This document shows, piece by piece, positions 1-40,724 of a DNA stretch of 64,000 bases. The position numbers were made by a program, and so were the translations under genes. Positions within the stretch are counted from its first letter, which is position 1, and every line of letters starts with the position of its first letter. The DNA is from a virus (lineage: Duplodnaviria > Caudoviricetes), in the IMG/VR virus record IMGVR_UViG_3300037067_013742, positions 64,001-128,000 of that record; one strand, written 5' to 3'. Under the pieces are notes generated by a model. It searched no databases. It was not told where the DNA came from and saw only the letters and a program-made list of their open reading frames with translations.

Positions 1-2
1 TT

Positions 3-419
3 CAGGAGCGGTTTGTTGCCTATGCTGATGAATTAGATAGAGATGGAAAGTTAGTCAACTCTATGACATTTAGGTCCCAGGTCTCTAAGTTAGTAGAGTT
101 AGATCTCTACGACTATCGTCTGAGTCTCATTCTTGGTGGGGCCGGGGGAACCTCGGATGGATCTCTTCTAATTGAGCAAACAATTGGAATTGATAAGGAT
201 TCTCAAGAGGAGATAAAGCAGGTTCAAGATCATCCCGCATGGAGGATGAAGGTAAAAGTTCAACAGCAAAGGATGGAGCTTTTGGACTCCATGGGCCTTA
301 CCGAAAGAAGGAAGGCCGCTATAGACGCAGCCCTTCATCGTAACAGTGAAGAGAACTTCCTATCTAAGTCGATAGAACTTCTTGAAAGGATCGCCAAGAT
401 AGAGGAAGCTATGGGGTAG
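3..419 (+). CDS. Putative terminase small subunit (P27-like), 5'-truncated by the window edge
   Basis: The frame is open from position 3, upstream of the ATG at 63. The C-terminal HPAWRMK...MELLDSMGLTERRK resembles the (N/H)PA...lGLTP..R pattern of P27-family TerS. It lies upstream of TerL. Confidence 0.5.
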   Translation, partial: QERFVAYADELDRDGKLVNSMTFRSQVSKLVELDLYDYRLSLILGGAGGTSDGSLLIEQTIGIDKDSQEEIKQVQDHPAWRMKVKVQQQRMELLDSMGLTERRKAAIDAALHRNSEENFLSKSIELLERIAKIEEAMG

Positions 420-431
420 GACCATAGCTAA

Positions 432-3400
432 ATGCCTTTTAAGGGTTTCCTCTTCTACGATATCGAGACTCGTCTTCCATCAGGATACGATAAACCTTTC
501 TCTGAAAGTGCTAAGAGGGCCCATCAATTATGGGGCTTTCAGTACAAAGTAACCGGTCTCGATCCCGTTGAATCTGTTACTGAAAAGACCAGGATGCTCC
601 TGGCCAATCCTACTAAGTTCTTATCTCGTAATAAATCTAAAGAAGCTGAGTTCTCGCTTCTAAAGAAAGTTTCTCGTAAATTTAATCCAGACCTTGTTGG
701 GGTTGGCTGGAATAACCAATCTTTTGATGCCCCGGTTCTAGGACATTCTTTTGGAAGAGCTAAGGCTGGCGGGGCCTTTGCCAAAACCCGACAAGTAGAC
801 CTTATGGTCGAAGCCCAAAAGGCTTTTGAAAAGATCTATGGGTTTAAGGGTGGGCGACCCTTCTCTCTTCGTGCCTTTACTAATGACTTAATAGAGGTTG
901 TAACAGAGGGTCTATCTGTAGAAGACAAAGCCTTCTATCTTGCTAGATGGAAGATTAGTGGCGGAAAGGGAAAGATCGCCCTTCGTTCTGGTGAGGAGCT
1001 ATCTGGAGAGAACTACTGGAAGGCTTTAGGCGAAAAGGGAAAGGGAAGTGCTCTAAGAAGTGCTCATAAATATAGTATTAGAGACGTAGACATCCTTCCG
1101 TTCATAGAAGCTCATACTCGTCTTGCTCATCATGCAATAGACGGTTCTGTTGAAGTCAATATGCGGCTTCTAAAGAAGATGAAGAGGTATGAGCAGGCAG
1201 AAGCTGCCGTTAAAGCTTTCCCAGAGTTGTTCAATGGGTCTAATAAGAATGGCCCGAGAATTCAGCTTACTAGTGAAGAGACAACCGGTAAATCCTGGCT
1301 CTCTAAGTGGATGAGAGATGAGGGGAAGAGGGGAAAGCTTGGTCTTGTTACTGGAGATGTAGCGTGGATAGCTAACGATAGAAGAGTTGCTGGAAGTCGT
1401 TCGGGTATCGTCGCCGCGCAAATCAAGTACAGGGGTGAGTACCATCGTTTCGACTTAACCTCTCAGTCTGGCAAGTTGGGAATGTACCAACTTCAACAGA
1501 AGATGGCTTTGGAGATTGGAGATACTAGAGCTCTAAAGAATTTAGAGAAGAGGATTGCCCATCTTACTTACCAGACTCCCTTCTCGGCTATTAATCCCAA
1601 GATTGCCAAAGGTCCCGCTGCGAAGATAGGTACTCGTCTAGCCCGACGCTCTATCCTCTCTCCTGAACTAAGAGAGATTTTTAGTCTTGGTGGTGCAACC
1701 AGACGAGAGATGCTTGCTCCTCGTTTAGAGGGAATGCGGGCAGTAGAGATAGTTCAGAACTATCTGAAAAAGAAAGAGATTCCTCTACTTAGGACTGGAG
1801 ACGATGTAAGAAACTTCCTGGTAAGCAGGAAGATGAATGTTAGTGAAGCTACTAAAGCGGCAGAAGAAATTACCAATACTGGAAAACTTGGCTCATCTTT
1901 CCGTAAGGAGGGAATTGAGGGCGTCTATGTAGCTTCAAGAGAAAAATTAGCCTCTATGGGTTATAAGAAGCCTGGTCTAACTGGGGCTACGATAGCCGTA
2001 CATGAGGCTCTTGAGGGACAGATTAGATCTTCTGGTGGATTAGACGAGGCTTGGAAAACTGTTTCTAGTCATACTAGCCATCGAATTTATGGCGCCGAGA
2101 TGGAATTTGCGGCCATGCTCGGCCCCGATGCGGTTAGGGAGCTTTCTCTTAGAAGAGGTCGGGAGATTGCACAACTAGCTGGAAAGCTAGGGACTCCAGA
2201 GCTAAAGTCTGCTGAGAATTACCTAAGCAATCTGCCGAAGCTCTATCATCAGATCCTAACCAATCGCGGATATTCAAAAGAAGAAGTTTCTGAGTTTATC
2301 GAGCCGTTCCTACATGCTCCGATATCTGGGAAGGCTTCTTCTGTAGCCAAGGCAGCTTCTCAACCAGCAAAGTTAGGAGAGCAGGCTGCTCATACGCTAG
2401 ATGCTTTAGGTCCTGAGTCTAGACTTTTTAAGTTAAGTAAGGGTATTCCACTTGCTATCGGTACTGCTATTGGGGCGGATGTTCTTCTCTCTAAAGATAA
2501 GACTGGGCCATTTTGGGGTGGGGTTGCGGCTATTGGAGCCTTAGTGGGCTCTGGCTTCCTCGCCAAGGGGATGAGCGGCGGGAGGAGGGCTGGTCTTGCA
2601 GGTGCTGCCTACCTAGTCACCAGGCTTATTGTAGGTGGCATTGCGGGTAGTATGGACGCTGGCCATGATCCGGCAATTGAGGGTCTTAACGAAAGTGGGT
2701 TTGCGGGAACTCGTTCTCTTGAAACTGACTTTGGTTCTGGTTGGAAGGGACTAGCCAGTCAGAGACAGCTTCGTTCTATTTTTGCGGGGGATCATCACAT
2801 TAGTCTATTTGGGCCAGCCAGAGCCAGAGTGGGTTTAGCCAGTGCCCATAATTCAATTATAGAAGGTCTTCATGATAATGGCTTTAGTGCTGGTCTAAGG
2901 CATAGAACTACAGACTTTGGATCTGGATTCTCGCGGGCGGCTAGAACAGCAGTTGAAAAGCTCGGCAAGTTCTTTGGAAGAGCGAGGAGAGCAACTACTT
3001 CCAGTACAGTAAAGGCTGTCGAAACTATTATCCCTGAAGTCCCAGAGGGTTTTGCAAGAGCTCTTGATCGTACCGAAGAGGAAGCAAGCGTTATCTGGAC
3101 CAGTCCCGCTGCGCAAAGATGGTGGAACTGGAGAACTAGTCAGTCTGCTGAAAGGATAAACGAGCCAACTGAGGCCATTTTAAATGCCCTCCCTAATAAG
3201 CAGATTCCAAAGACTTTAACTCCAAGGACCTTAGGTGCTAGTGAGTCTCAAGTTATTTCCCCAGCACAAACAACTACCAAGTCTCTAGATAAGATTAGTG
3301 GTCAGTTTGCTAAAAGTCATAATCCGGAGATCATTCCTGGTACTCCCAAGAACCCGGTTTCTGGTGCGGGCGAACCAGTAAATGATGCTAAGTCATGGCT

Positions 3401-4823
3401 TAAAGCTCATAGGATGGGGGTCGGAATTACCCTTGGAGGTCTGACCGCAGCTGGATTAGTAGCTACTGGATGGAGCAGGGCTAGGGCTGATGAACACGAT
3501 TATGCTTATTCGTCTCCTCATGGAGCTTTATATCGGCGGTCACACCCTAGAGCTTTAGAAGGTTTTAGAGCTGGTGGTATGAACGAAAGTCGGAGGAGGG
3601 AATACTCTGACTTTGGTACTGGGCGTGACGCAGTTAGAGGTATAGCTCAGGCCCTTAAGGCAGTCAATGGCTCTGCTCGCAAGATTGGTAAGCGAGCTTT
3701 CCAAGAGTTTCTAGCAGAGCCAGAGTTCCAAGAAGCTCTTAGGACAGGAGAGATAATAGGGAAGCGCGGAGAGGGTGGCTTCGGCTCTGTCTACGAGATG
3801 AAGCAGGTTTATAAAGGTCATACTTTTAAGTATGCCGCAAAGGTTTACGACGACGCGTCTTCCCTAGAGGAAGAGGTTCGTTTTGCAAAAAAGCTTCAAG
3901 ACACTTATACCCCAACAATTTACGGTAAGGGGGAAACAACGACAATTGGTCGTCGGCCTGGTGATAAGCCGGGAAGTGTTGTTTTCATGGAACTTATCGA
4001 AGGCGAGACTGTTGAGCAAAAGATAGCAAAAGGTGAGCTCACTAAAAAAGCAGCCAAGAGTTTAAAGCAGGGAATGGCAGAGGCTCATAAGCAAGGGCTT
4101 GTTCACGGAGATCCCAACATCAAAAACTTTCTAGTAAACCAGTTTGACGAGACGATTATCATCGATGCTATGCCTACATCTTCTAAACTTCCGGGCTTAG
4201 GTGGAAAAACAGGTCACTACGCTAATGAAGTTGGAAGAGTGGCTGATGACTTATCAGTTGAGATGATACTTGGTCATTCGTCCGGTCAGGATATTGAGGC
4301 CTTAAAGCTTTCTACATTTGGAGCGGGGCAAGCGGTCCCTGGTATTATGCAAATGGCAAAGGACCCAAATAAATTCCATAAGTGGGCAACAGGTTTGGCA
4401 AGGGGTCAAAAGTGGGGGTCATCATTTAAAGAAGTTATGTCTCGAGTTTCTTCTCAAACAAGAGAGGCCATCAGGAGAAGTACGCCAGAAGCTTTTGATA
4501 TAGCTGAGGATATCGCCGCGAAAGAGCATTTATATAAAAAGCCAATTTCGGCAGGAGCTCCTCCAGTTTTAAAGAAGGGTGTGGGACAGGGAGATCTACC
4601 TGATTTGGCTAATCTGAAGAATGATCTCTTTATAGCAGAAAAAACCAGGGCTCAGGAGGCCAGTAACTATGCCCAAAGTGTAAACCTAAAAAGTCGAGCC
4701 AGGGAGCGATTACATCAGGCCGCAGTCGAAAGCCAACATATGAAAACTCATCGGTCTAGTCAGATGTCGCAGGGAGTTTCTCCGGTTATAGATAATAACT
4801 ATCTTGTAACTCCAAGAAGATAG
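432..4823 (+). CDS. Polyvalent protein: DEDD 3'-5' exonuclease-like domain, hydrophobic segments, 3 repeats, Ser/Thr protein kinase domain
   Basis: ExoI FYDIET, ExoII GWNNQSFD and degenerate ExoIII AHHAIDGS. Kinase motifs GEGGFGSVY (nt 3768), YAAKVY, VFMELIEG, LVHGDPNIKN (nt 4104) and IIID. Gly/Ala hydrophobic stretches lie between the domains. Confidence 0.8.
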   Translation: MPFKGFLFYDIETRLPSGYDKPFSESAKRAHQLWGFQYKVTGLDPVESVTEKTRMLLANPTKFLSRNKSKEAEFSLLKKVSRKFNPDLVGVGWNNQSFDAPVLGHSFGRAKAGGAFAKTRQVDLMVEAQKAFEKIYGFKGGRPFSLRAFTNDLIEVVTEGLSVEDKAFYLARWKISGGKGKIALRSGEELSGENYWKALGEKGKGSALRSAHKYSIRDVDILPFIEAHTRLAHHAIDGSVEVNMRLLKKMKRYEQAEAAVKAFPELFNGSNKNGPRIQLTSEETTGKSWLSKWMRDEGKRGKLGLVTGDVAWIANDRRVAGSRSGIVAAQIKYRGEYHRFDLTSQSGKLGMYQLQQKMALEIGDTRALKNLEKRIAHLTYQTPFSAINPKIAKGPAAKIGTRLARRSILSPELREIFSLGGATRREMLAPRLEGMRAVEIVQNYLKKKEIPLLRTGDDVRNFLVSRKMNVSEATKAAEEITNTGKLGSSFRKEGIEGVYVASREKLASMGYKKPGLTGATIAVHEALEGQIRSSGGLDEAWKTVSSHTSHRIYGAEMEFAAMLGPDAVRELSLRRGREIAQLAGKLGTPELKSAENYLSNLPKLYHQILTNRGYSKEEVSEFIEPFLHAPISGKASSVAKAASQPAKLGEQAAHTLDALGPESRLFKLSKGIPLAIGTAIGADVLLSKDKTGPFWGGVAAIGALVGSGFLAKGMSGGRRAGLAGAAYLVTRLIVGGIAGSMDAGHDPAIEGLNESGFAGTRSLETDFGSGWKGLASQRQLRSIFAGDHHISLFGPARARVGLASAHNSIIEGLHDNGFSAGLRHRTTDFGSGFSRAARTAVEKLGKFFGRARRATTSSTVKAVETIIPEVPEGFARALDRTEEEASVIWTSPAAQRWWNWRTSQSAERINEPTEAILNALPNKQIPKTLTPRTLGASESQVISPAQTTTKSLDKISGQFAKSHNPEIIPGTPKNPVSGAGEPVNDAKSWLKAHRMGVGITLGGLTAAGLVATGWSRARADEHDYAYSSPHGALYRRSHPRALEGFRAGGMNESRRREYSDFGTGRDAVRGIAQALKAVNGSARKIGKRAFQEFLAEPEFQEALRTGEIIGKRGEGGFGSVYEMKQVYKGHTFKYAAKVYDDASSLEEEVRFAKKLQDTYTPTIYGKGETTTIGRRPGDKPGSVVFMELIEGETVEQKIAKGELTKKAAKSLKQGMAEAHKQGLVHGDPNIKNFLVNQFDETIIIDAMPTSSKLPGLGGKTGHYANEVGRVADDLSVEMILGHSSGQDIEALKLSTFGAGQAVPGIMQMAKDPNKFHKWATGLARGQKWGSSFKEVMSRVSSQTREAIRRSTPEAFDIAEDIAAKEHLYKKPISAGAPPVLKKGVGQGDLPDLANLKNDLFIAEKTRAQEASNYAQSVNLKSRARERLHQAAVESQHMKTHRSSQMSQGVSPVIDNNYLVTPRR
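2676..3626 (+). repeat. Three copies of a ~24-aa motif (I/L)EG(L/F)xxxG(F/M)...R...(T/S)DFG(S/T)G at 2676-2744, 2859-2930 and 3555-3626
   Basis: IEGLNESGFAGTRSLETDFGSGW / IEGLHDNGFSAGLRHRTTDFGSGF / LEGFRAGGMNESRRREYSDFGTGR, read from the translation. Confidence 0.9.
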
Positions 4824-4836
4824 TCTTAACTAGCCT

Positions 4837-4845
4837 TGATACAAT
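4837..4845 (+). promoter_or_regulatory. Putative extended -10 promoter (TGaTACAAT) for the glycine-zipper genes
   Basis: TGnTACAAT in an AT-rich intergenic gap; SD GGAG at 4871-4874 before ATG 4882. Confidence 0.55.
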
Positions 4846-4881
4846 TATTTATATATCCTATACATAGTACGGAGAATTTGA

Positions 4882-5589
4882 ATGGCCTCAGCTAAAGCAG
4901 TTAAAGGAATAGGAACAAGGGTACTTGATTGGGCCGCGGGAAAAGTCGGTCCTCTTGTTGATAAGTATAAAGGAGCTTCTCCAGGATCGTTAGCTTTGGG
5001 AGTAGCTCGTGGAGCTCTGGGGTTCGCTGTTTCTCATCCGGCAGCTATGATGGCCGGAGCTGGAGCTATTGGTGGATATGCAACAACTGGAAACGCCGCT
5101 GGGGGCTTTGCTGGTGCCGGGATTGGCTATCTAAGTGGAAGAAAAGGTTGGGGGAAAAACGATTCTTCTTTTGCAAGGAGGATGGCTAGAGAGTCAGTTT
5201 ATTCAGCTCAGTTAGCAGTTGCCTCTCCAGAAGGTAGGAAATGGATGAGAGGGGGTGTCGCCGCTACTAGGAAGGCACACCCAAAAATAAGTAGAGGAGA
5301 AGCATTCAAGCGATTTGCCACATCACAAGGACGAGCAACCGGGGTTGACGTTGGTAGACAGTGGTCCATTCAACAAGCCGGCCACGTTAAGGGCTGGAGC
5401 CGAGGGCTTAAGATGGCTACGGTAGCTGGGGTTGCTGGTATTGCTGCTGGTGGAACCAAGATGGCTTGGGGTATTGGAACGGACGTTTTTGGTAGCCGTA
5501 AAACTGGTAATTCTTATGGAGCCGAGCGTACCAGTGGCTACGGAGCCTCTTTTAGCGGGATGGGTAATGGGATTGTTGGTGGGTACTGA
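4882..5589 (+). CDS. Gly/Ala-rich basic glycine-zipper membrane protein (possible ejection/pilot protein)
   Basis: GxxxG runs (AGAGAIGGY..AAGGFAGAGIGY; VAGVAGIAAGG), SD GGAG, stop overlaps the next start. Confidence 0.55.
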   Translation: MASAKAVKGIGTRVLDWAAGKVGPLVDKYKGASPGSLALGVARGALGFAVSHPAAMMAGAGAIGGYATTGNAAGGFAGAGIGYLSGRKGWGKNDSSFARRMARESVYSAQLAVASPEGRKWMRGGVAATRKAHPKISRGEAFKRFATSQGRATGVDVGRQWSIQQAGHVKGWSRGLKMATVAGVAGIAAGGTKMAWGIGTDVFGSRKTGNSYGAERTSGYGASFSGMGNGIVGGY

Positions 5590-6437
5590 TGACTGAACCA
5601 GTTATGCCGGCCGGAGTTAGTGCTGAAGAAGCTGCTGCCGCCCAGAATTGGGAGGCTATTCGTGGAAGAATTGGTAACTGGGGAGATAGTGTAGGTCGTA
5701 AGGCCTTTGGAATGAAGGGGGACGTTACTTGGGGGCAGCACTTTTCCAATGCGGCTATGCAGAGCCGACTTGTTGAAGCCGGTTATCTTACGAAGCCCGG
5801 TAGATTTGGTGTAACGAGAGCTCTTGCTAAAGGAGCCGGTCAGGGCTGGCTAAGTGCCTTCTTCCCTGTGTCTCCTCCTATTCCTGCTGGAGGAGCAAAA
5901 GCGGGGAGCAAGATCTTATCTGCACTTCCAAAGGCGTTAAGAGCTCCGGTGGGTATGGTTGGTCGAACTGCCTTAAAGTGGCTTGGGCCAGTTATAACGA
6001 CCTATCGACTTGCTACCGAAACAAAGGGGCTTGGAACTATAGGAAAGATAGATAAGTCCGCTCGGATCTTAGGAGAGGAGGGAGCTTGGGCTGCTGGCGC
6101 TGGCATTGGCGCTGTTTTGGGTTCTGTCGTTCCGGGTATTGGGACTATTGGGGGTATGATTGTGGGCGCTGGTATTGGTTACGTCGGTTCCAAGGCCTGG
6201 AACTTTGGTCTTGACGTAGCAGAGGCTCCAATCCGTATGGCAGCGAGAGGGTGGAATGCTCTTGAGGCCAAAGGTCGTCAAGCAAAGAGGTTAGAGTTAG
6301 GCGGGAGAGTATCTTTAGGAAATACTACTAGTGCTGCTGCAACAATGAGGCAGAGGGCTATTGGAGAGATCTATCGTTCTGGTATTAACCAAAGAAGTAT
6401 TCTTGGCAGAGAAGCTTCTTACATGCATACTCGATAG
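5589..6437 (+). CDS. Glycine-zipper membrane protein (possible ejection/pilot protein)
   Basis: GAWAAGAGIGAVLGSVVPGIGTIGGMIVGAGIG is a glycine-zipper hairpin; TGATG coupling to the upstream gene. Confidence 0.6.
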   Translation: MTEPVMPAGVSAEEAAAAQNWEAIRGRIGNWGDSVGRKAFGMKGDVTWGQHFSNAAMQSRLVEAGYLTKPGRFGVTRALAKGAGQGWLSAFFPVSPPIPAGGAKAGSKILSALPKALRAPVGMVGRTALKWLGPVITTYRLATETKGLGTIGKIDKSARILGEEGAWAAGAGIGAVLGSVVPGIGTIGGMIVGAGIGYVGSKAWNFGLDVAEAPIRMAARGWNALEAKGRQAKRLELGGRVSLGNTTSAAATMRQRAIGEIYRSGINQRSILGREASYMHTR

Positions 6438-6477
6438 TACATCAACCTACATCATTCCTATCGTAACTACAGTGGTG

Positions 6478-6493
6478 TGATACACTTTCTCTT
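6478..6493 (+). promoter_or_regulatory. Extended -10 promoter (TGaTACACT), predicted leaderless terL mRNA
   Basis: TACACT at 6481-6486 ends 7 nt before ATG 6494; no SD. Confidence 0.6.
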
Positions 6494-9400
6494 ATGAGTA
6501 CAGATGCTTCGACTATTTTTTCTGGGCGCATAGGAATTCCAAAGAACTTACATCCAGCTTGTGAAGCCTGTATTGCTAATGCAAGAGAGAAATATACTGG
6601 CTTTATGTCGGACGAGGGTACTTATCACAAAGACGGTTTTGCGGTAAATTGTCCCTATATCCCCCACGACGAAAAGTATTTTCCTGATAAGTTTAAATCT
6701 CAAATGTCTCCAGAAGAATGGGCACTAATGAACAGCCTTAAATCTCCTCTATTATGGGGAGAGGCTAATCTAGTAGACCCAGATAATGGAAAGCCTTGGA
6801 AGGCTTGGGATTATCAGAGGGCTCCTCTTCTTTGTGCAAGTCCTAGAAAATGTTATAGATTTGGTAGGAGAACTGGTAAATGTAGGACCCGAGATTCCGA
6901 TATAACTCTTGCTGATGGGTCAATCAACAAGATGGGAGATTTAGTAGGTCATACATTTTCGGTATGGTCTATAGATCCTAATACTTTTAAATATACGAAA
7001 GTGGCTGCAACGGCTTTTGAGAACGGGGATCAACCTTGTGTTAGGGTTGGAACAAAGTATGGTCATATAATCGAATGTACTCGAAATCACCCTTTTCTAA
7101 CTTGTGATGGTTGGGTTTCTGTAGAAACTGGCTTATCTATAGGCAATAGAATTGCGACACCAATTACAAACCCAAACATTGGGAGTGAGGTGTTTGATAA
7201 AAGGTTACTTTCTCTTCTTGGATATCTTCTTGGAGACGGCAGTTTTTATGATGGATCTAGTTTGGATGTTAGATTTACGGTTTCTATAGAAAGAGAGGAT
7301 GTTCTACAGCATTTTTTGTCTCTACTAAATGGAACATATCGTATTAACAAAAAAGTTCATAATAATTGTAATTGTATAGCTCTTCATATGGATAATGATA
7401 TTGTGTCTATTATCCAAGAGCTTGGGCTTAGGGGGAAAAACTCTCACACCAAATTTATTCCCCCTTTTGTCTTCAAACTTAATTCGGAATGTATTGTAGA
7501 GTTTTTACGACCATTATTTACAACAGATGGGTGGTCGGACAATAGAGGGAATATCGGATACTGCTCAGCATCAAAAGAGTTGGCCACTGGTGTTAAACGA
7601 CTTCTTTCAAGATTGGGAATCGTTTCATCTATAAGGATTAAAACTATAAAGAGTGGAAGGTATTCTGGAAACGAGTATTATACTGTAGACATATGTAACT
7701 ATTCTGAAACAAAAAAGTTCGAGGAGATTATTGGTCTTAAGTATAAGGGCTATAAATATTCTACTTCTTCAGATAGAAATTCTTATAACTCTCAGCTACG
7801 ATCAATGCCAAAAGAGTTTTCGTTTAAGTTTGCGAAGAAGTTAAGAAGGGTTGTCAACACTGTAAAACAACGGAATTCTTTTGGTTATATTAGAGAAGAC
7901 CATGCCGTTGGAAGAGAAGTTCTCACTAAATGGGCAGAAGATCGCCCGGAATATTTTAAAGATGAGCTAACGCTTCTTAATTCTGATCTCTATTGGGATG
8001 AGATTGTTTTTATTGAGGATATAGGAATAGTCCCTACAGTTGGATTAAGCGTTCCAGGAACAGAAAATTACGTAAGTGATGTGGTAGAGCATAACAGCAC
8101 GATCCTTGCCGTAGAGATTCTTTGGTATCTTTTTACTTCTGGTGGGGGAAGGCTACGCGATCCCGATACTGGTCGTGTTCGTCAAAATCTAACGGTAATG
8201 TTATTAGCTCCACAAAAGGTTCACGTAGATAATATCTTCCAGAGAATTAGAGCCTTCTTGACTCTATCTCCAAAGCTTTCTAATAACGTAGCCGCTTCTC
8301 GTCGTGGTTCCCCTCAATATATAGGTTTAAAGACTAAGGATGGTGGAGATGGAAATGGTGTTTCTGGCTTTGCTTCTGGAGATGCTTCTGGTAGTAAGGG
8401 ACTGTCTGGTCGTGGTCAGGACGCTGACTTAATCGTTCTGGACGAAGGAGCGTTCGTATCAGAAGACGTTATGATGAACGTCATTAACCCCATTCTTTAT
8501 ACTCGGCCAACTACATCGTTTATCGTCTCTTCAACTCCTTCTGGTATTTCGGGCGACTATTTCGAAAAGGTTTGTACTCGCAGACCAGACTTTGTAGAGT
8601 TCTATGTTCCCGCCTCGATGAGACCTGACTGGGATAAGGTTAAAGATCAAGTAAGAAAGGACTTCGGTTCTTCTCAAGATGAGTGGAATAAAGAGGTTAT
8701 GGCGGAGTTCTCTCCTGCTGGTATTGGTGTTTATAGAGACGACTTAGTAAAGCTCGCCCAGTCTGACTATGCTTATGGAGATATGCATCGTCATGACGGA
8801 TATATCTATACTTTTGGTATCGATTGGAATAAAGAGCATGGAACTGAGATTGCTGTAGTTGCAACAGCACGTTCTGCTCCTCACGTTTCGTGGACTGCCT
8901 TTACAGAAAACATTCCTAAGGAAGAGTTTACTACTCCTGCTGGCATACAGAGAGTTGTAGAGCTTAATAGGATTTGGCGACCTATGTGGATCTACGCCGA
9001 TGAAGGTGGTGGAGATGGCGCGGCAATGCTTCGTCATCACGGCCGAATGAGCGTTGGCAAGAACCCAATAGACGCCGTCCTTAAGGACATTGTTAAGTCC
9101 TACGATTTTGGATCTAAGCTTGAGATTATTGAGGCTGACGGGACAATGGTTAAATATCCGGCTAAACCCTTTATGGTGGAAAACTCCGTGAAGAAGTTTG
9201 AGCTTGGTGAGTTTAAATATCCTCGTGGTGACTTGCTTCTAACTAAGCAGTTGAATAATTATGTTGTTGATCGGCGTACCCCAGCCGGGATTCCCGTATA
9301 TGCTGTCAAGGAAAAGAAGTGGGGCGATCATAAGTTGGATGCTGTTAACCTTGCTCTTATTGCAGTTAGGTTAGAACTTCCGTCCTTTACTCAAGGGTCA

Positions 9401-9637
9401 GTTGGTTCGATGGGTACTCCAGTTATTTATATCCCAACCGAGCAGGCAAAGAGTGAGCGGGCTATCCTCCCAATGTCTGTCCCAAACAGAAGACTTCCAG
9501 ATTCTTCTATACGATCAGATCCAACCTATGGTAAAAAGGTTGTGGTCCGTTATTGGGGTACGGAACCTAATGAGGCTATTGCAGAAGCTCGGGCGGGTCG
9601 GCGTAATCAACCTCGCGGCAGACGGTTTGGAAGGTAA
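6494..9637 (+). CDS. terL: Terminase large subunit, intein-containing (642-aa spliced product)
   Basis: Walker A GRRTGK/S split by the intein, Walker B LIVLDE, motif III SSTP, and RNase H-like nuclease motifs FGIDWN, YADEGG, DHKLDA. Confidence 0.95.
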   Translation: MSTDASTIFSGRIGIPKNLHPACEACIANAREKYTGFMSDEGTYHKDGFAVNCPYIPHDEKYFPDKFKSQMSPEEWALMNSLKSPLLWGEANLVDPDNGKPWKAWDYQRAPLLCASPRKCYRFGRRTGKCRTRDSDITLADGSINKMGDLVGHTFSVWSIDPNTFKYTKVAATAFENGDQPCVRVGTKYGHIIECTRNHPFLTCDGWVSVETGLSIGNRIATPITNPNIGSEVFDKRLLSLLGYLLGDGSFYDGSSLDVRFTVSIEREDVLQHFLSLLNGTYRINKKVHNNCNCIALHMDNDIVSIIQELGLRGKNSHTKFIPPFVFKLNSECIVEFLRPLFTTDGWSDNRGNIGYCSASKELATGVKRLLSRLGIVSSIRIKTIKSGRYSGNEYYTVDICNYSETKKFEEIIGLKYKGYKYSTSSDRNSYNSQLRSMPKEFSFKFAKKLRRVVNTVKQRNSFGYIREDHAVGREVLTKWAEDRPEYFKDELTLLNSDLYWDEIVFIEDIGIVPTVGLSVPGTENYVSDVVEHNSTILAVEILWYLFTSGGGRLRDPDTGRVRQNLTVMLLAPQKVHVDNIFQRIRAFLTLSPKLSNNVAASRRGSPQYIGLKTKDGGDGNGVSGFASGDASGSKGLSGRGQDADLIVLDEGAFVSEDVMMNVINPILYTRPTTSFIVSSTPSGISGDYFEKVCTRRPDFVEFYVPASMRPDWDKVKDQVRKDFGSSQDEWNKEVMAEFSPAGIGVYRDDLVKLAQSDYAYGDMHRHDGYIYTFGIDWNKEHGTEIAVVATARSAPHVSWTAFTENIPKEEFTTPAGIQRVVELNRIWRPMWIYADEGGGDGAAMLRHHGRMSVGKNPIDAVLKDIVKSYDFGSKLEIIEADGTMVKYPAKPFMVENSVKKFELGEFKYPRGDLLLTKQLNNYVVDRRTPAGIPVYAVKEKKWGDHKLDAVNLALIAVRLELPSFTQGSVGSMGTPVIYIPTEQAKSERAILPMSVPNRRLPDSSIRSDPTYGKKVVVRYWGTEPNEAIAEARAGRRNQPRGRRFGR
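6881..8095 (+). mobile_element. Intein with LAGLIDADG homing endonuclease (405 aa) in the TerL Walker A
   Basis: GK|CRTRDS...VVEHN|S junctions, block B CTRNHPF, LAGLIDADG-like LGYLLGDG and LRPLFTTDG; visibly more AT-rich than the exteins. Confidence 0.95.
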
Positions 9638-35990: not shown

Positions 35991-38900
35991 ATGGTAAGCC
36001 CATTCAATCTGCTACGAGCAAATGCTTCTATCGATAACCCCTTCGGTGACGGAGAAGATGTCTTAGGTAAGGCCTCTCGCCTGGCTGCTACAGGAGCCCT
36101 TCTTACAGGGGCTGGATACGCTCTCTACCGAGGTTATCAAGATCAGAAGACTTCTGTGCAGCGAGCCGTAGAAAGCGCCAGGAGAGCGATCCAGGGCCCT
36201 TCTGGGTCATTGCCTAGAATGATGACAAGAGCGCCTCTAGAGGTTCAGGAGAAGATGGTAGAAGAAGCCTTTAGAGCTGGGCAAGATACTATGTCTCCTC
36301 TTGGCTGGAGAACCTACCTTAAGAAGGTTTATGAGAGAGCGGCCTATAAAGCCGGTGTTCTTACTGATGATGAAAGAATAAAGTTAGTAGAAGAACTAGG
36401 AGATGTTGGGGGCTCTTGGGAAAACGTAAGGGGTCATCTAAAAGAAAACGAGGGAGTTCTTGGTGGACTGGAGGGGGTCTATTCAGAGATTAGAGAACTA
36501 GCTAATGGTCGTCTTCCCGGAAGAGGAGGGATGAGTGGGGCCGAGTTACTAAGAGATTTCTCTACTGGTACTCCGGGAGCTCCAGAGATTGGGCCACTTC
36601 TTCCAAATCAGCACCGGATGGGTTCTAGTGCTTATGTCAGAAGTGCCTTTGAACCAGAGGGCAGATTTTGGCAAGAGCAGTTTCCATTGGTTCCTAATAG
36701 GGAATCAAACGTAGAGTTGATTGGTGGCGGAGGTTTAAACCAAGCTCAGGCTAGAGCAAAGAAGTTCTCAAGAATGAGTGGTATGTATGTTAAGGCGGGG
36801 GTTAGAGATATTACTCGTGACCGGAACTTTATTGGCGGGAAGGCTGCAAGGAACAAGTTTAATATTGCCGGTACAGGTGAGGTAAGCCTTACCATGAATG
36901 AGTATCAGGTTGGTGGTAAGGGTAGCCGCCACTTCTTCCAAATACCAAACGCAAAAGAGATTAAGACTAATGTTGGTAGTGTCATGCTTGCTGCTGCAGA
37001 CCATAGGGGCATGGGTTTCTCTGCTGTTGGTAAGTGGACCATTCAGGTAAAGGGCAAAGACGGGAAGTTGACTAGGAAGGTTGTCGACTGGAACACCGGC
37101 ATCAACACTCTTGTTTTTGGTGGGGAGGGACTATCTTCTGGTAGCTCTTTAACAGAAAGACTACACGCTGCTGCTGGCGATGCAAGAGAGCAACGTAGAA
37201 TTCTAGATAACTTTAAGACCGAAGTTAGTGCTCTTATGTATAGAGTTGATGGATCTCAAGCCTCTATGACCCAGGCTTTGTTCCATAGTGAATCGGCCGT
37301 CCCTATAGAGTTGTCGGCTGAAAGGATTATGGATCCTAACTATCGCAATACTATGGATCAGGTTAAAAACCACTGGGACGAGATGGTTAAGTCTGGCCAT
37401 AATATAGGGCCAATGTCTAGTGCTACTTCTATGGGTGAAAGGTCTCGAGTTTCTCTTCGTGATTGGGCGGGCGAACTAGATGTCTTTGGGGCTAACTATC
37501 CAATGGAAAGGAAGTTCGCTGGTCGCTTCAGGGGAAATTATTCTCTGAGTCCTAGAGCAAGAGAGGCAATGGAGACACGCCCTATTATGGGTAAAATCCC
37601 TAGATCTATGCCTACGACAGCAACTTCAAGATTTGGAGAAGTTGTATCTAATAAAACTCCCAACGTCTTTACTTACTACTCTCTAAAAGAGATGAAAGAC
37701 TTGCGACCTGAGGAGGCCGTTCTTTCTAGAACAGTTGCTCCAATGGTTGAGTTTACCGAGAAGAAGACATATGAAGTCGCGCGGGGTACAACTAGAGCCG
37801 CTATTGGAGAAGAGCTTTCTACCAACCAAAGCCTAGGGATAGATTACAGGACCGGGAAAGAGATTAGGTCTGCTGCATCAGAAGGTCATATGACCGAGAG
37901 GATTCTAGGAGCAGTAGATAAAGGAGATCTTATCGAGTTAGAAGTTGAGCGAACTGTCCCATTTCAAGATGGGTTGAAGGGTTATACCCGTAAGGTTAGA
38001 TATCGAATAGCTAGAGAAAGTATGACAGAAGAACTAGCTCATCAGTTTGGGATTAATGCTCAAAGCCCTGTATATAAGTATAGCCACCATATAGAAGCCG
38101 CAATGGACGTAGAGGCCCTAAAGAAGATTCCAGGAGAGGTTTACGGACAGATGGCAAGCGGCCTTCAGTATATTGCTGCAGACAAACTAAAGGGTGTTCG
38201 TTCTAGAAGAAGAGGGAAGGGGAGGGGGAGAACTTTTGGCCCAAAGAAAGGATTCCAAAAGTATAGGAATGCCCATGTTAAAGATATGTGGAATTACGTC
38301 AACAATGCCGACTTGAGAGAGAAGTATCTTACGCGAGTTGCTAAAGAGGGTGAGAGCCTAGCTCGACAGTTTGGTCTAAGCGAGAACCTTCTTCATCACG
38401 GAGCTGGCTTGGGCCTTCTCAAGAAGGCAGCTGGTTGGAATCTTAGCTCTTCCGATATTGGGTTAATTGGTGGCTTTTTCCATAAGCAGCTTTTCTCTGC
38501 TCTGGGTGGAGATATGGCCGCCTCTCAAAAGATGGGAGAGATCTATAGGGGCATTGGACTTTCGACTAGCGACATTAAGGCCCTTATGACTTCTCAGGGG
38601 GTAATAGGAGGCCACGCTCTAAACATTGGAGATGTTGACTCTCTAAAGGTTGTCGAAAGAGCTGGCCTAGATCCTCGTGGTCTATTAGAAATAAAGGCTC
38701 AGGATTGGGGACAATTGGGAGACGACGTTATAGCTGAGTTCGCAAGAAGAATTCCAGATAGAGGAATGGGTGAACTGATTACGGCTACCAAGTCCATGGT
38801 TGGCTTGGCCGCAGACATCCCCGAAGGAACTAGGGGGGTCGAGAATGCGGCAGAAGCTATGGAGCTCATCGGTAAAGAGAACTTTGTCTGGAAGGGCGGG

Positions 38901-40724
38901 GGACGAGAGCTATATATTCCAGCCGCTGCTGGTGGGCATATGGGTGAATATACCCAGGAGGTTGGTGAGAGGGCTGATATGCCCCTCAAGAAAGCCTACC
39001 GTCAATATATTGAGGCAAGGGGACGAATTACAGACTACGAAGGAATGATGTCTGGGACTGACTATCAAGACCTTCCAGACTATGAAGCTTTAAAAGTTAA
39101 GGCCACAGAGTTAGAGGATGCTCTTCGTAATCAACTTGGTCATGAGATGCTAGGCTCAACTTCTCTTAGGGGAAAGATCTTTGGTTCATTAGAATTGACG
39201 GCTAGTACCTGGACCGGATCAAAAGCCTCATCTCATTTAAGTATTGAGTATGGAAGTATAGACGAGCTACTTAACGATCATAAGAATCTCTTCGTGTCTG
39301 GCATAACAGAGAAGTCATATAAGAGATTACACAACGACTTAATGAGAGTTGCCAGCGAAAAAGAGAAAACCTTCTTACAGGATCAATACAGACGTTTTAT
39401 GGCCGGCGAGAACATTCCCACAATGGAATGGAGAAACCCTCTTATTGGCCCCCAAAGTATGACACCTGGATATATTCGTAGAGTAGAAGCCGATGCAGAG
39501 GGCATATATATCAAGAAGATGACGCTCAATAAGGATGGTAGGGCTGTCGATGTTTCTGGTATGGCTGCTAAGTCTGGTGATATGGACGGCGACCAGATTT
39601 CCCTAATGCTTATGGGAGACGAGAAGGTTGCCGCTGAGATAGACAAGACCCTACATTCTGCTAGTTGGAGAAAAGATTATGTAGCAGCTCTAGAGAGGAA
39701 GCAGGACCTAGAGAAAGCTATTGCTGCCTCTGCTGCCGGGAGAGACCTCGGTCGAGCTAACTATGAGGGGTTGACTCGCCATGTTGGCGTCAAGATGGAG
39801 ACCGGTATGATCTCCACTCTTGTAGATGATATGAAGGCTACGGCTGCTTTTAACGCTTCGAGCAAAGAAGAATACACAATAATGTCCGAAATCTTTGCTC
39901 GTATGTCGCAGGCCCCAATTTCTTCCAAACATGGTCTTTACGCTAGTGAAGTAAGCGATTTGCTAGATGAGTTTGTCTCTAAAGACAAGGGTCGTGTTAG
40001 CGGTGCATTAGAAGATGTATGGGACATCCTTATGGGAGAGGGGAAGGTTGAGGGCTATAACAAAGAAGAAGTTATCAGTAAAGTAAAAGGCTGGGTCCAA
40101 ACCTCTTCTAATAATGGAGAGTTGTCAGCTCATCGTGCTGTTTGGCGCGCGGCAAATAAAGCAGCTAAAGGTGGGATTGCCGGAGAAGTTTCAGAAGATG
40201 CCCTAGTTCATATTATCAAAATGATGGAGAGTGGTAAGGGAGATCTAAATGCTGCTCTTGTTAGAGAGATGAGGATGGGGCCCGGCTCTGGTATTTCTGC
40301 CTCTAGAGCAACAGTAGAGGCTGCTAGTAATCTAGGTGGAATGGCTATCAATGCCTTCAAGAAGCACTGGAAGTATCCAGCAATGGGCGCAGCTGTGGGT
40401 CTTGGTATTGCTGCTTTAGGCGCGGGAACATCTATAGCTATGCCACGAGAAGACGCTTCTATGAAAGCGACAGAACTTATGGCCAGTCGTGGTCCAGCCG
40501 AACTTCAGATGCCAAGCGGAATTCAGAATAGAATTCTTACTTCTGGCGGGGGCGGGATGCAGGCCGGATACAGAATGTCGTATAGTGGTGATCTGAATAG
40601 TTCTGGAATGAATGACTTAGCTGGATTTGGAGCTGGTGTTGGTGGTAGGGTTACTGTGAGAGATAACCGAGGAGCTATATCTCCTCAGTATATAGATAAA
40701 GCTCAAGACGAAAGGTATATCTGA
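35991..40724 (+). CDS. Putative virion single-chain two-barrel RNA polymerase in the tape-measure locus
   Basis: Beta'-like WRNP (R1148) and GDMDGDQ (D1197/D1199/D1201, nt 39579-39593); beta-like EEAVLS (E574) and DGLKGYTRK (K663/K668); hydrophobic segments near both termini. Confidence 0.7.
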   Translation: MVSPFNLLRANASIDNPFGDGEDVLGKASRLAATGALLTGAGYALYRGYQDQKTSVQRAVESARRAIQGPSGSLPRMMTRAPLEVQEKMVEEAFRAGQDTMSPLGWRTYLKKVYERAAYKAGVLTDDERIKLVEELGDVGGSWENVRGHLKENEGVLGGLEGVYSEIRELANGRLPGRGGMSGAELLRDFSTGTPGAPEIGPLLPNQHRMGSSAYVRSAFEPEGRFWQEQFPLVPNRESNVELIGGGGLNQAQARAKKFSRMSGMYVKAGVRDITRDRNFIGGKAARNKFNIAGTGEVSLTMNEYQVGGKGSRHFFQIPNAKEIKTNVGSVMLAAADHRGMGFSAVGKWTIQVKGKDGKLTRKVVDWNTGINTLVFGGEGLSSGSSLTERLHAAAGDAREQRRILDNFKTEVSALMYRVDGSQASMTQALFHSESAVPIELSAERIMDPNYRNTMDQVKNHWDEMVKSGHNIGPMSSATSMGERSRVSLRDWAGELDVFGANYPMERKFAGRFRGNYSLSPRAREAMETRPIMGKIPRSMPTTATSRFGEVVSNKTPNVFTYYSLKEMKDLRPEEAVLSRTVAPMVEFTEKKTYEVARGTTRAAIGEELSTNQSLGIDYRTGKEIRSAASEGHMTERILGAVDKGDLIELEVERTVPFQDGLKGYTRKVRYRIARESMTEELAHQFGINAQSPVYKYSHHIEAAMDVEALKKIPGEVYGQMASGLQYIAADKLKGVRSRRRGKGRGRTFGPKKGFQKYRNAHVKDMWNYVNNADLREKYLTRVAKEGESLARQFGLSENLLHHGAGLGLLKKAAGWNLSSSDIGLIGGFFHKQLFSALGGDMAASQKMGEIYRGIGLSTSDIKALMTSQGVIGGHALNIGDVDSLKVVERAGLDPRGLLEIKAQDWGQLGDDVIAEFARRIPDRGMGELITATKSMVGLAADIPEGTRGVENAAEAMELIGKENFVWKGGGRELYIPAAAGGHMGEYTQEVGERADMPLKKAYRQYIEARGRITDYEGMMSGTDYQDLPDYEALKVKATELEDALRNQLGHEMLGSTSLRGKIFGSLELTASTWTGSKASSHLSIEYGSIDELLNDHKNLFVSGITEKSYKRLHNDLMRVASEKEKTFLQDQYRRFMAGENIPTMEWRNPLIGPQSMTPGYIRRVEADAEGIYIKKMTLNKDGRAVDVSGMAAKSGDMDGDQISLMLMGDEKVAAEIDKTLHSASWRKDYVAALERKQDLEKAIAASAAGRDLGRANYEGLTRHVGVKMETGMISTLVDDMKATAAFNASSKEEYTIMSEIFARMSQAPISSKHGLYASEVSDLLDEFVSKDKGRVSGALEDVWDILMGEGKVEGYNKEEVISKVKGWVQTSSNNGELSAHRAVWRAANKAAKGGIAGEVSEDALVHIIKMMESGKGDLNAALVREMRMGPGSGISASRATVEAASNLGGMAINAFKKHWKYPAMGAAVGLGIAALGAGTSIAMPREDASMKATELMASRGPAELQMPSGIQNRILTSGGGGMQAGYRMSYSGDLNSSGMNDLAGFGAGVGGRVTVRDNRGAISPQYIDKAQDERYI

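Follow-up and report, generated by a model that had tools for sequence, protein, structure and literature searches.

A peptide of about 40 residues, present in three copies in a large phage protein and not described before, was found to mark module boundaries across a widespread protein family and to be the joint at which related phages have exchanged whole modules as cassettes. The protein, P0001, is encoded in the window analysed here, a stretch of 64,000 nucleotides covering bases 64001–128000 of a 229,064-bp IMG/VR phage record (IMGVR_UViG_3300037067_013742), in which the plus strand carries all large open reading frames (ORFs). The explanation we tentatively prefer is that the peptide is the junction element of an effector protein that would be ejected into the host and that swaps its modules as cassettes, with the peptide probably acting as a processing or release site.

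A sequence-only reading of this DNA had picked out three diverged copies of an IEG...TDFGSG repeat in P0001, and these copies are real. Their cores occupy residues 749–772, 810–834 and 1042–1065 (nucleotides 2676–3626) of a single ORF; the coordinates of the full copies and of the other features are given in Table 1. Scored with a profile hidden Markov model (HMM) that had been built solely from copies in other proteins, they reached 30.2, 30.7 and 33.3 bits (independent E values of ~1e-11 to 1e-12), against a top domain score of 5.6 bits in 2000 shuffled versions of P0001, which confirms the repeat as genuine copies of one junction peptide. The envelopes of copies 1 and 2 lie ~20 residues apart (cores ~36 residues) with no module between them. 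As the same reading had described, hydrophobic stretches on the Kyte-Doolittle scale end just before copies 1 and 3 (residues 720–742 and 995–1014), and the Gly loop of a protein kinase begins ~45 residues past the end of copy 3. Copy 2 is without an upstream hydrophobic segment. Upstream of copy 1, a conserved block, APYAxGxAxGADVLxSxDKTGPFWGG, is common to P0001 and its relatives. The order of modules in P0001 is an exonuclease-like N-terminus, so called from inspection of the sequence only, a module with an HE..E site, a linker and the protein kinase.

To establish the spread of the motif, a 42-column profile was searched against 1.84 billion metagenome cluster representatives (50% identity). 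Matches at E ≤ 1e-3 comprised 544 representatives, of which 307 also passed E ≤ 1e-10 and 65 passed E ≤ 1e-30; among the 150 matches listed, lengths ranged from 610 to 2454 residues and nearly all proteins contained 2–7 copies. This search, of a kind that the sequence-only reading had proposed as a check, showed the motif to be widespread in other phages. Neither result named in that reading as a refutation, absence from other phages or a match to a known repeat unlinked to domain boundaries, was obtained. A word search recovered five P0001 homologues, each of which keeps the motif, one of them in six copies. In IMG/VR, 41 stretches on contigs of up to 204 kb matched a degenerate DNA pattern of the canonical motif, with exactly one motif-bearing ORF at each locus. 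The same pattern, run against 596 Gb of species-representative prokaryote genomes, gave one match, which is attributed to chance because it contains in-frame stops. No match was found by tblastn of P0001 residues 640–1340 or of P0006 against 50,697 GenBank phage records, by blastn of window positions 1–8000 against GenBank phages, or by phmmer of P0001 against PDB sequences, and a search of viral contigs with P0001 residues 1030–1300 returned no relative. The earlier statement that no named family covers the motif also held: residues 739–841 and 1032–1073 are uncovered by Pfam (E ≤ 1), NCBIfam (E ≤ 0.1) and PHROGs (E ≤ 0.01), and a full-text search of the literature for the core strings DFGSG and TDFGSG gave nothing relevant. 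The motif is thus a family-wide feature of an uncultivated lineage of large phages.

The wider consensus reads FSGkDDaYNTIEGLrHgGhAxxxRKxxTDFGSGWxGL, that is, a short basic helix and, after it, a nearly invariant turn of T-D-F-G-S-G and an aromatic residue. Within the copies, the core Phe, Gly, Ser and Gly are kept at 99, 100, 95 and 85%, an Arg and a further Gly at 86% each, the Thr at 80% and the aromatic position at 87%. Conservation at the level of the protein, as first suspected, was borne out by codon usage: the P0001 copies use different codons for D, F, G, S and G, and across the family third-codon positions of the core vary freely, with both TCN and AGY in use for Ser. Since synonymous sites vary and Ser is drawn from two codon families, selection must act on the peptide and not on the DNA. 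The DNA identity common to copies is limited to short runs of ~8–14 nucleotides, so that the conservation lies beyond the reach of DNA homology alone. Recent slippage was ruled out as the origin of the repeat, as the copies differ at most codons.

Placement of the motif relative to neighbouring modules was then tabulated. Over 153 proteins (P0001–P0153), the spacing from copy to copy has a median of 265 residues (interquartile range 210–320), and the tail past the last copy has a median of 280 residues. In ~200 related proteins, the motif separates independently folding modules at domain-sized intervals, in line with the module-junction signal suggested by the sequence-only reading. The modules found across the family are of the kinase, staphylococcal nuclease (SNase), PolB-exo-like, RNase T, DUF2441 and HE..E types. 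When the next module after ~600 copies was recorded, it was a kinase in 152 cases, an SNase in 58, a member of one of nine recurrent unnamed families in ~150 and unclassified in 177, with a second copy following within 50 residues after 53 of the ~600, as with copies 1 and 2 of P0001. Kinase modules are directly preceded by a motif copy at fixed spacing in 152 of 156 cases, and PolB-exo-like and RNase T exonuclease modules almost always lie ahead of the first copy. A kinase is present in 147 of 210 motif proteins and absent from 63, which include complete genes of 2083 and 2454 amino acids on long contigs. A hydrophobic 19-mer (Kyte-Doolittle score of at least 1.0) was located within 45 residues upstream of 36% of copies, compared with 10% downstream and 7% at random positions.

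The suggestion that the motif is a recombination joint for swapping effectors also found direct support. Family pairs that share stretches of at least 65% identity provided 29 internal similarity ends, and 25 of these fall inside or within 10 residues of a motif copy in both partners (random-position null: mean 5, maximum 14 in 2000 trials). Some of the pairs are interrelated, so independent events are fewer than this count. The clearest case at the DNA level is that of P0062 and P0166, which are 98.7% identical over the first 1665 nucleotides, as far as the codons for TDFGSGWQG in motif 1, and return to 98.2% identity at the DFGSGW codons of motif 2, through to the end. The modules in between, of ~200 and ~310 residues, are unrelated, and one of the two has an HEELH site. 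In other pairs, identity is lost right after FGSG or gained right at the start of the motif. Whole modules have therefore been exchanged between related phages as cassettes at the motif. Unlike most pairs, P0001 and its only close relative, P0002, have breakpoints away from the motif (P0001 residues 898–921, P0002 residues 921–1170), where an indel or replacement of ~250 residues lies in the linker that joins copy 2 to the hydrophobic segment preceding copy 3.

Two AlphaFold models were generated from family alignments, one of the P0001 motif plus kinase (115 sequences) and one of a motif–SNase–motif unit (66 sequences). In the first, the predicted local distance difference test (pLDDT) score exceeded 90 for the kinase core and was 55–70 for the motif; in the second, it exceeded 90 for the SNase core and was 40–65 for both copies. 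One short helix was predicted per copy, over G-h-A-x-x-x-R-K, with the FGSG core in coil. Given the low scores and the single short helix, the motif is predicted to act as a flexible linker peptide that lies outside the neighbouring folds.

The kinase module gave 22 bits to Pfam Pkinase, which is under the cut-off of 31.7 bits. By Foldseek, its model matches many protein kinases with a probability of 1.0, at template modelling (TM) scores of only ~0.4. A Gly loop, Lys, helix-C Glu, Asp and Asn, metal-binding Asp and a predicted bilobal fold place it within the protein kinase superfamily, and Lys, Glu, catalytic Asp, Asn and metal-binding Asp are nearly invariant in the 115-sequence alignment. 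It had been noted from the sequence that the kinase lacks a DFG of its own whereas the repeats contain one; this was wrong in substance, as P0001 retains the metal-binding Asp in an IIIDAMP segment. With its own Asp, the kinase has no need of a DFG supplied by the motif, and the occurrence of the motif in the 63 kinase-less proteins weighs further against such a role. Donation of a DFG by the motif was consequently rejected, while the module-junction and recombination-joint parts of the same interpretation stood.

In the preferred explanation, the ~40-residue motif, often placed after a Gly/Ala-rich hydrophobic segment, separates independently folding effector modules in one long chain, and this entire chain would be packaged into the virion, from which it would reach the host through the tail in unfolded form. 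Virion packing and ejection are suggested by near-zero cysteine, a late/packaging gene position and the hydrophobic segments. Only 47 cysteines are found among the 252,446 residues of 210 motif proteins, with none in 176 of them. The only large ORFs of the window without cysteine are P0001, the two small genes that follow it and one ORF of 1577 amino acids; the others contain 0.2–2.3%. Such avoidance may be a mark of unfolded passage through the tail. With regard to gene position, P0001 is flanked by a TerS-like gene and by a TerL gene that contains an intein, with portal and capsid genes downstream. The order of TerS-like gene, motif protein, two or three small Gly-rich hydrophobic proteins and TerL was seen at seven loci, representing six independent contexts. 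After delivery, the peptide would allow the chain to be handled module by module, most likely as a recognition and cleavage site at which each effector could be freed from its hydrophobic anchor. The protease could be phage-encoded, the candidates being the HE..[EH] or HExxH modules, which roughly half of these proteins carry, and a putative head protease. A bolder version, which we regard as rather doubtful, is that of an injected, membrane-anchored, cysteine-free polyprotein with modules hot-swappable between phages at the joint and each freed in the host through a cut in or beside the FGSG turn; such a system, so far unrecognized, would be the phage equivalent of MARTX and polymorphic toxins and would have a processing chemistry of its own.

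Candidate proteases were sought within the family and in the genome. The HE..E family occurs in 80 of 208 motif proteins, P0001 included, with H524, E525 and E556 (P0001 numbering) invariant; it has no Pfam match, and its profile found no match among PDB sequences. From this pattern of residues, the module could be a metallopeptidase, though not one universal in the family. HExxH is found in 58 and HExxE in 74 of 203 proteins, where composition would predict ~0.04 and ~0.12 per protein, respectively. Several further types of HExxH module, all unassigned to a family, are also present in motif proteins. Elsewhere in the genome, outside the window and far from the head module, a ClpP-family protease is encoded at G000:C1:209708-210196 on the minus strand (82 bits to PF00574). 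When all six frames of the complete 229-kb genome were searched with a profile, no motif copy beyond the three in P0001 emerged even at E ≤ 10, and a generic head-protease site shared across virion proteins was rejected for this reason. Self-cleavage at the motif, by Asn cyclization or a Gly–Ser acyl shift, is unlikely because Asn is not kept in the P0001 copies and the peptide is predicted to be unstructured.

Several points weigh against release by cleavage from an ejected chain. Cleavage is putative and no protease has been tied to the motif; roughly half of the proteins, and also minimal orthologues such as P0190 (motif–linker–transmembrane segment–motif–kinase), lack HE..[EH] and HExxH modules, and Pfam detects no T4-type (S77) or HK97-type (S78) head protease in the genome. 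Prohead-protease sites of the T4 or phiKZ type read L/I-x-E or S/A/G-x-E, with Glu at P1. The Glu of IEG is kept in only 64% of copies, and most protease sites are much shorter than the motif. The motif is also retained by minimal orthologues, which have a single effector, and must therefore do more than keep effectors apart. That the protein is packaged in virions and ejected is argued from composition and gene position only, and breakpoints at the motif could come from selection for intact domains alone.

Docking without cleavage is an unlikely alternative. Here each copy would bind a conserved partner, which might be the portal, a scaffold or other protein of the head interior, the two small Gly-rich proteins or a host factor. 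Binding would serve to load the chain into the capsid or, once it is ejected, to keep it at the membrane, and several copies would make the binding multivalent. Binding motifs typically look like this one, a linear peptide modelled at low confidence in which a 7-residue core is sharply conserved, and the retention of one or two copies in minimal single-effector orthologues, the conserved small neighbouring proteins with common C-terminal basic tails and the single uninterrupted ORF at each of the 41 IMG/VR loci would all fit. Against this, no partner was identified, no other protein of the 229-kb genome contains the motif, and binding alone leaves the exact placement of copies at module boundaries unexplained. 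It is less probable still that the motif is a topogenic element within units of hydrophobic segment, motif and enzyme, which would orient or insert the segments in the host inner membrane upon ejection. The 5-fold enrichment of hydrophobic segments directly upstream of copies and not downstream, the acidic DD that comes after the segment and before the basic R and K of the helix, and the order of transmembrane segment, motif and kinase in minimal orthologues are consistent with such a role. However, a clearly hydrophobic upstream segment is found at only 36–42% of copies and is missing at copy 2 of P0001, and FGSGW, the most conserved part, is ~30 residues away from it.

The regular position of a copy directly ahead of the kinase, together with the frequency of kinases in the family, raises the question of whether the motif is a substrate, pseudosubstrate or docking site for that kinase, either as a basophilic acceptor of the form R-[KR]-x-x-T or through aromatic docking of FGSGW. 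Conservation of R at −6, K/R at −5 and T at −2 would suit an acceptor. We consider this very improbable, since motif proteins without a kinase include complete genes, the kinase has its own Asp and the adjacent copy is undocked on the kinase in the monomer model; moreover, the position after FG is Ser in 95% and Thr in 2% of copies, which suggests a steric role and not that of an acceptor. Scarcely any weight can be given to the motif being mere microhomology that promotes cassette recombination without a function of the peptide. Although the breakpoints do lie at the motif, the free third-codon positions, the two Ser codon families and the short runs of shared DNA, set beside the extreme conservation of the amino acids F, G and S, already disfavour it.

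Known systems with exchangeable modules were compared with the P0001 family. In polymorphic toxins, pre-toxin junction motifs such as VENN of CdiA, PT-TG and the DPxGL of Rhs proteins provide a short conserved sequence at which variable C-terminal modules begin and near which these are replaced by recombination. The phage motif is unrelated to them in sequence (no Pfam match at E ≤ 1), occurs 2–7 times within a chain as opposed to once before a single toxin tip, and belongs to phage-encoded proteins with no evident immunity genes. MARTX toxins carry arrays of effector domains that are freed by an internal cysteine protease; they resemble the phage proteins in having hydrophobic or repeat regions and an exchangeable effector array in one chain, and their linkers are processing sites. 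The phage junction is a long conserved peptide, unlike the simple Leu-X site of MARTX, and its cleavage is putative. Unlike in MARTX, a cysteine protease domain cannot be present, given that P0001 and most of its relatives contain no cysteine. In T-even phages, conserved motifs reportedly mediate the swapping of adhesins in tail fibres (Tetart et al. 1998), and there too short conserved motifs flank variable segments that are exchanged by recombination among related phages. The fibre motifs lie in a structural protein and share DNA identity, whereas copies in the P0001 family share minimal DNA identity and the modules are enzymes.

The closest parallel is provided by the polyvalent proteins of phages and conjugative elements, some of them kinase-bearing, for which recombinational variability was raised as a possibility (Iyer, Burroughs, Anand, de Souza, Aravind 2017; PMC5512222). 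Like these, P0001 and its relatives are very long phage proteins that string together unrelated catalytic modules (kinase, nucleases, peptidase-like), and the gene lies beside packaging and head genes, with presumed delivery together with the DNA. Two traits of this class, several unrelated catalytic domains in one chain and a packaging/head gene neighbourhood, were found. A word search of the text of PMC5512222 shows no description of a repeated junction motif, and neither near-zero cysteine nor motif-bounded cassette swaps are described there. MuF, LPD and MPTase domains were not detected by Pfam in P0001 or in 20 representative modules.

If the preferred explanation is correct, big phages of a large group, none of them cultivated, share one standard "socket" peptide for assembling and exchanging host-directed enzymes, with kinases, nucleases and peptidase-like modules sitting within a single delivered protein. 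The motif profile would then be a simple handle for spotting effector arrays in viromes and would provide a natural boundary map for dozens of unknown effector families, as well as a testable model for the diversification of the effectors that phages inject. Where cysteine is avoided almost completely, this could likewise mark proteins that travel through the tail.

Table 1. Features of the P0001 gene and its neighbours (window coordinates unless a locus is named)
Feature	Position	Strand	Evidence
P0001 gene, 1463-residue multi-module protein, zero Cys	432..4823	+	ORF and translation; Cys count; positional orthologue of motif proteins on other phage contigs
Unnamed-family module, HEALE at residues 524–528, putative metal-dependent hydrolase	1839..2228	+	Family HMM match, residues 470–599
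Gly/Ala-rich hydrophobic segments, residues 668–742, directly upstream of copy 1	2433..2657	+	Kyte-Doolittle scan
Junction motif copy 1, residues 739–779 (core IEG...TDFGSGW, residues 749–772)	2646..2768	+	Profile HMM
Junction motif copy 2, residues 800–841	2829..2954	+	Profile HMM
Hydrophobic segment, residues 995–1014, upstream of copy 3	3414..3473	+	Kyte-Doolittle scan
Junction motif copy 3, residues 1032–1073, directly before kinase	3525..3650	+	Profile HMM
Protein-kinase-fold module (predicted), residues 1075–1335, complete catalytic set	3654..4436	+	Weak Pfam Pkinase match; AlphaFold; Foldseek; alignment
TerS-like protein, 238–285 residues in examined loci, directly upstream of motif gene	L010:5703-6419, into window 1-419		Cys cluster C.GP..CPF...C......PIGK.C..E
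First small Gly/Ala-rich hydrophobic protein, no Cys	4882..5589	+	Composition; gene order same in other loci
Second small Gly-rich protein, no Cys	5589..6437	+	C-terminal basic tail common with locus L006 counterpart
TerL with intein bearing LAGLIDADG homing endonuclease	6494-9637	+	

With respect to the neighbouring genes, the 238–285-residue protein encoded upstream is probably a small terminase or a DNA-binding partner. The two small cysteine-free proteins always come after the motif gene. The C-terminal tail of the second small protein, TAATMRQR..I..S..N.R..G.EA, is also present in the counterpart from a distant phage (L006:12985-14272), and motif proteins themselves end in basic tails that resemble it; these common tails may be a shared C-terminal signal. 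A minimal positional orthologue of 465 amino acids likewise consists of motif, linker, hydrophobic segment, motif, kinase and basic tail. The portal is 27–34% identical to those of the jumbo phages Moorella phage MTATph1, Bacillus phage 0305phi8-36 and Acinetobacter phage ME3. Two proteins of 555 and 463 amino acids between portal and capsid could be assigned neither to a protease nor to any other family.

TerL genes on related contigs also bear inteins, with two splicing-domain matches in one of them. At L004:3713-7705, the gene of a relative is split into ORFs of 399 and 904 amino acids in its N-terminal region and not at the motif, which could be a frameshift or an assembly error. The cysteine-free ORF of 1577 amino acids (35991-40724, plus strand) has a Gly-rich hydrophobic segment near its C-terminus and is unassigned by Pfam and PHROGs; its product could be another ejected protein. 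A string within it, SGDMDGDQ (approximately residues 1196–1203), recalls the DxDGD metal loop of multisubunit-type RNA polymerases.

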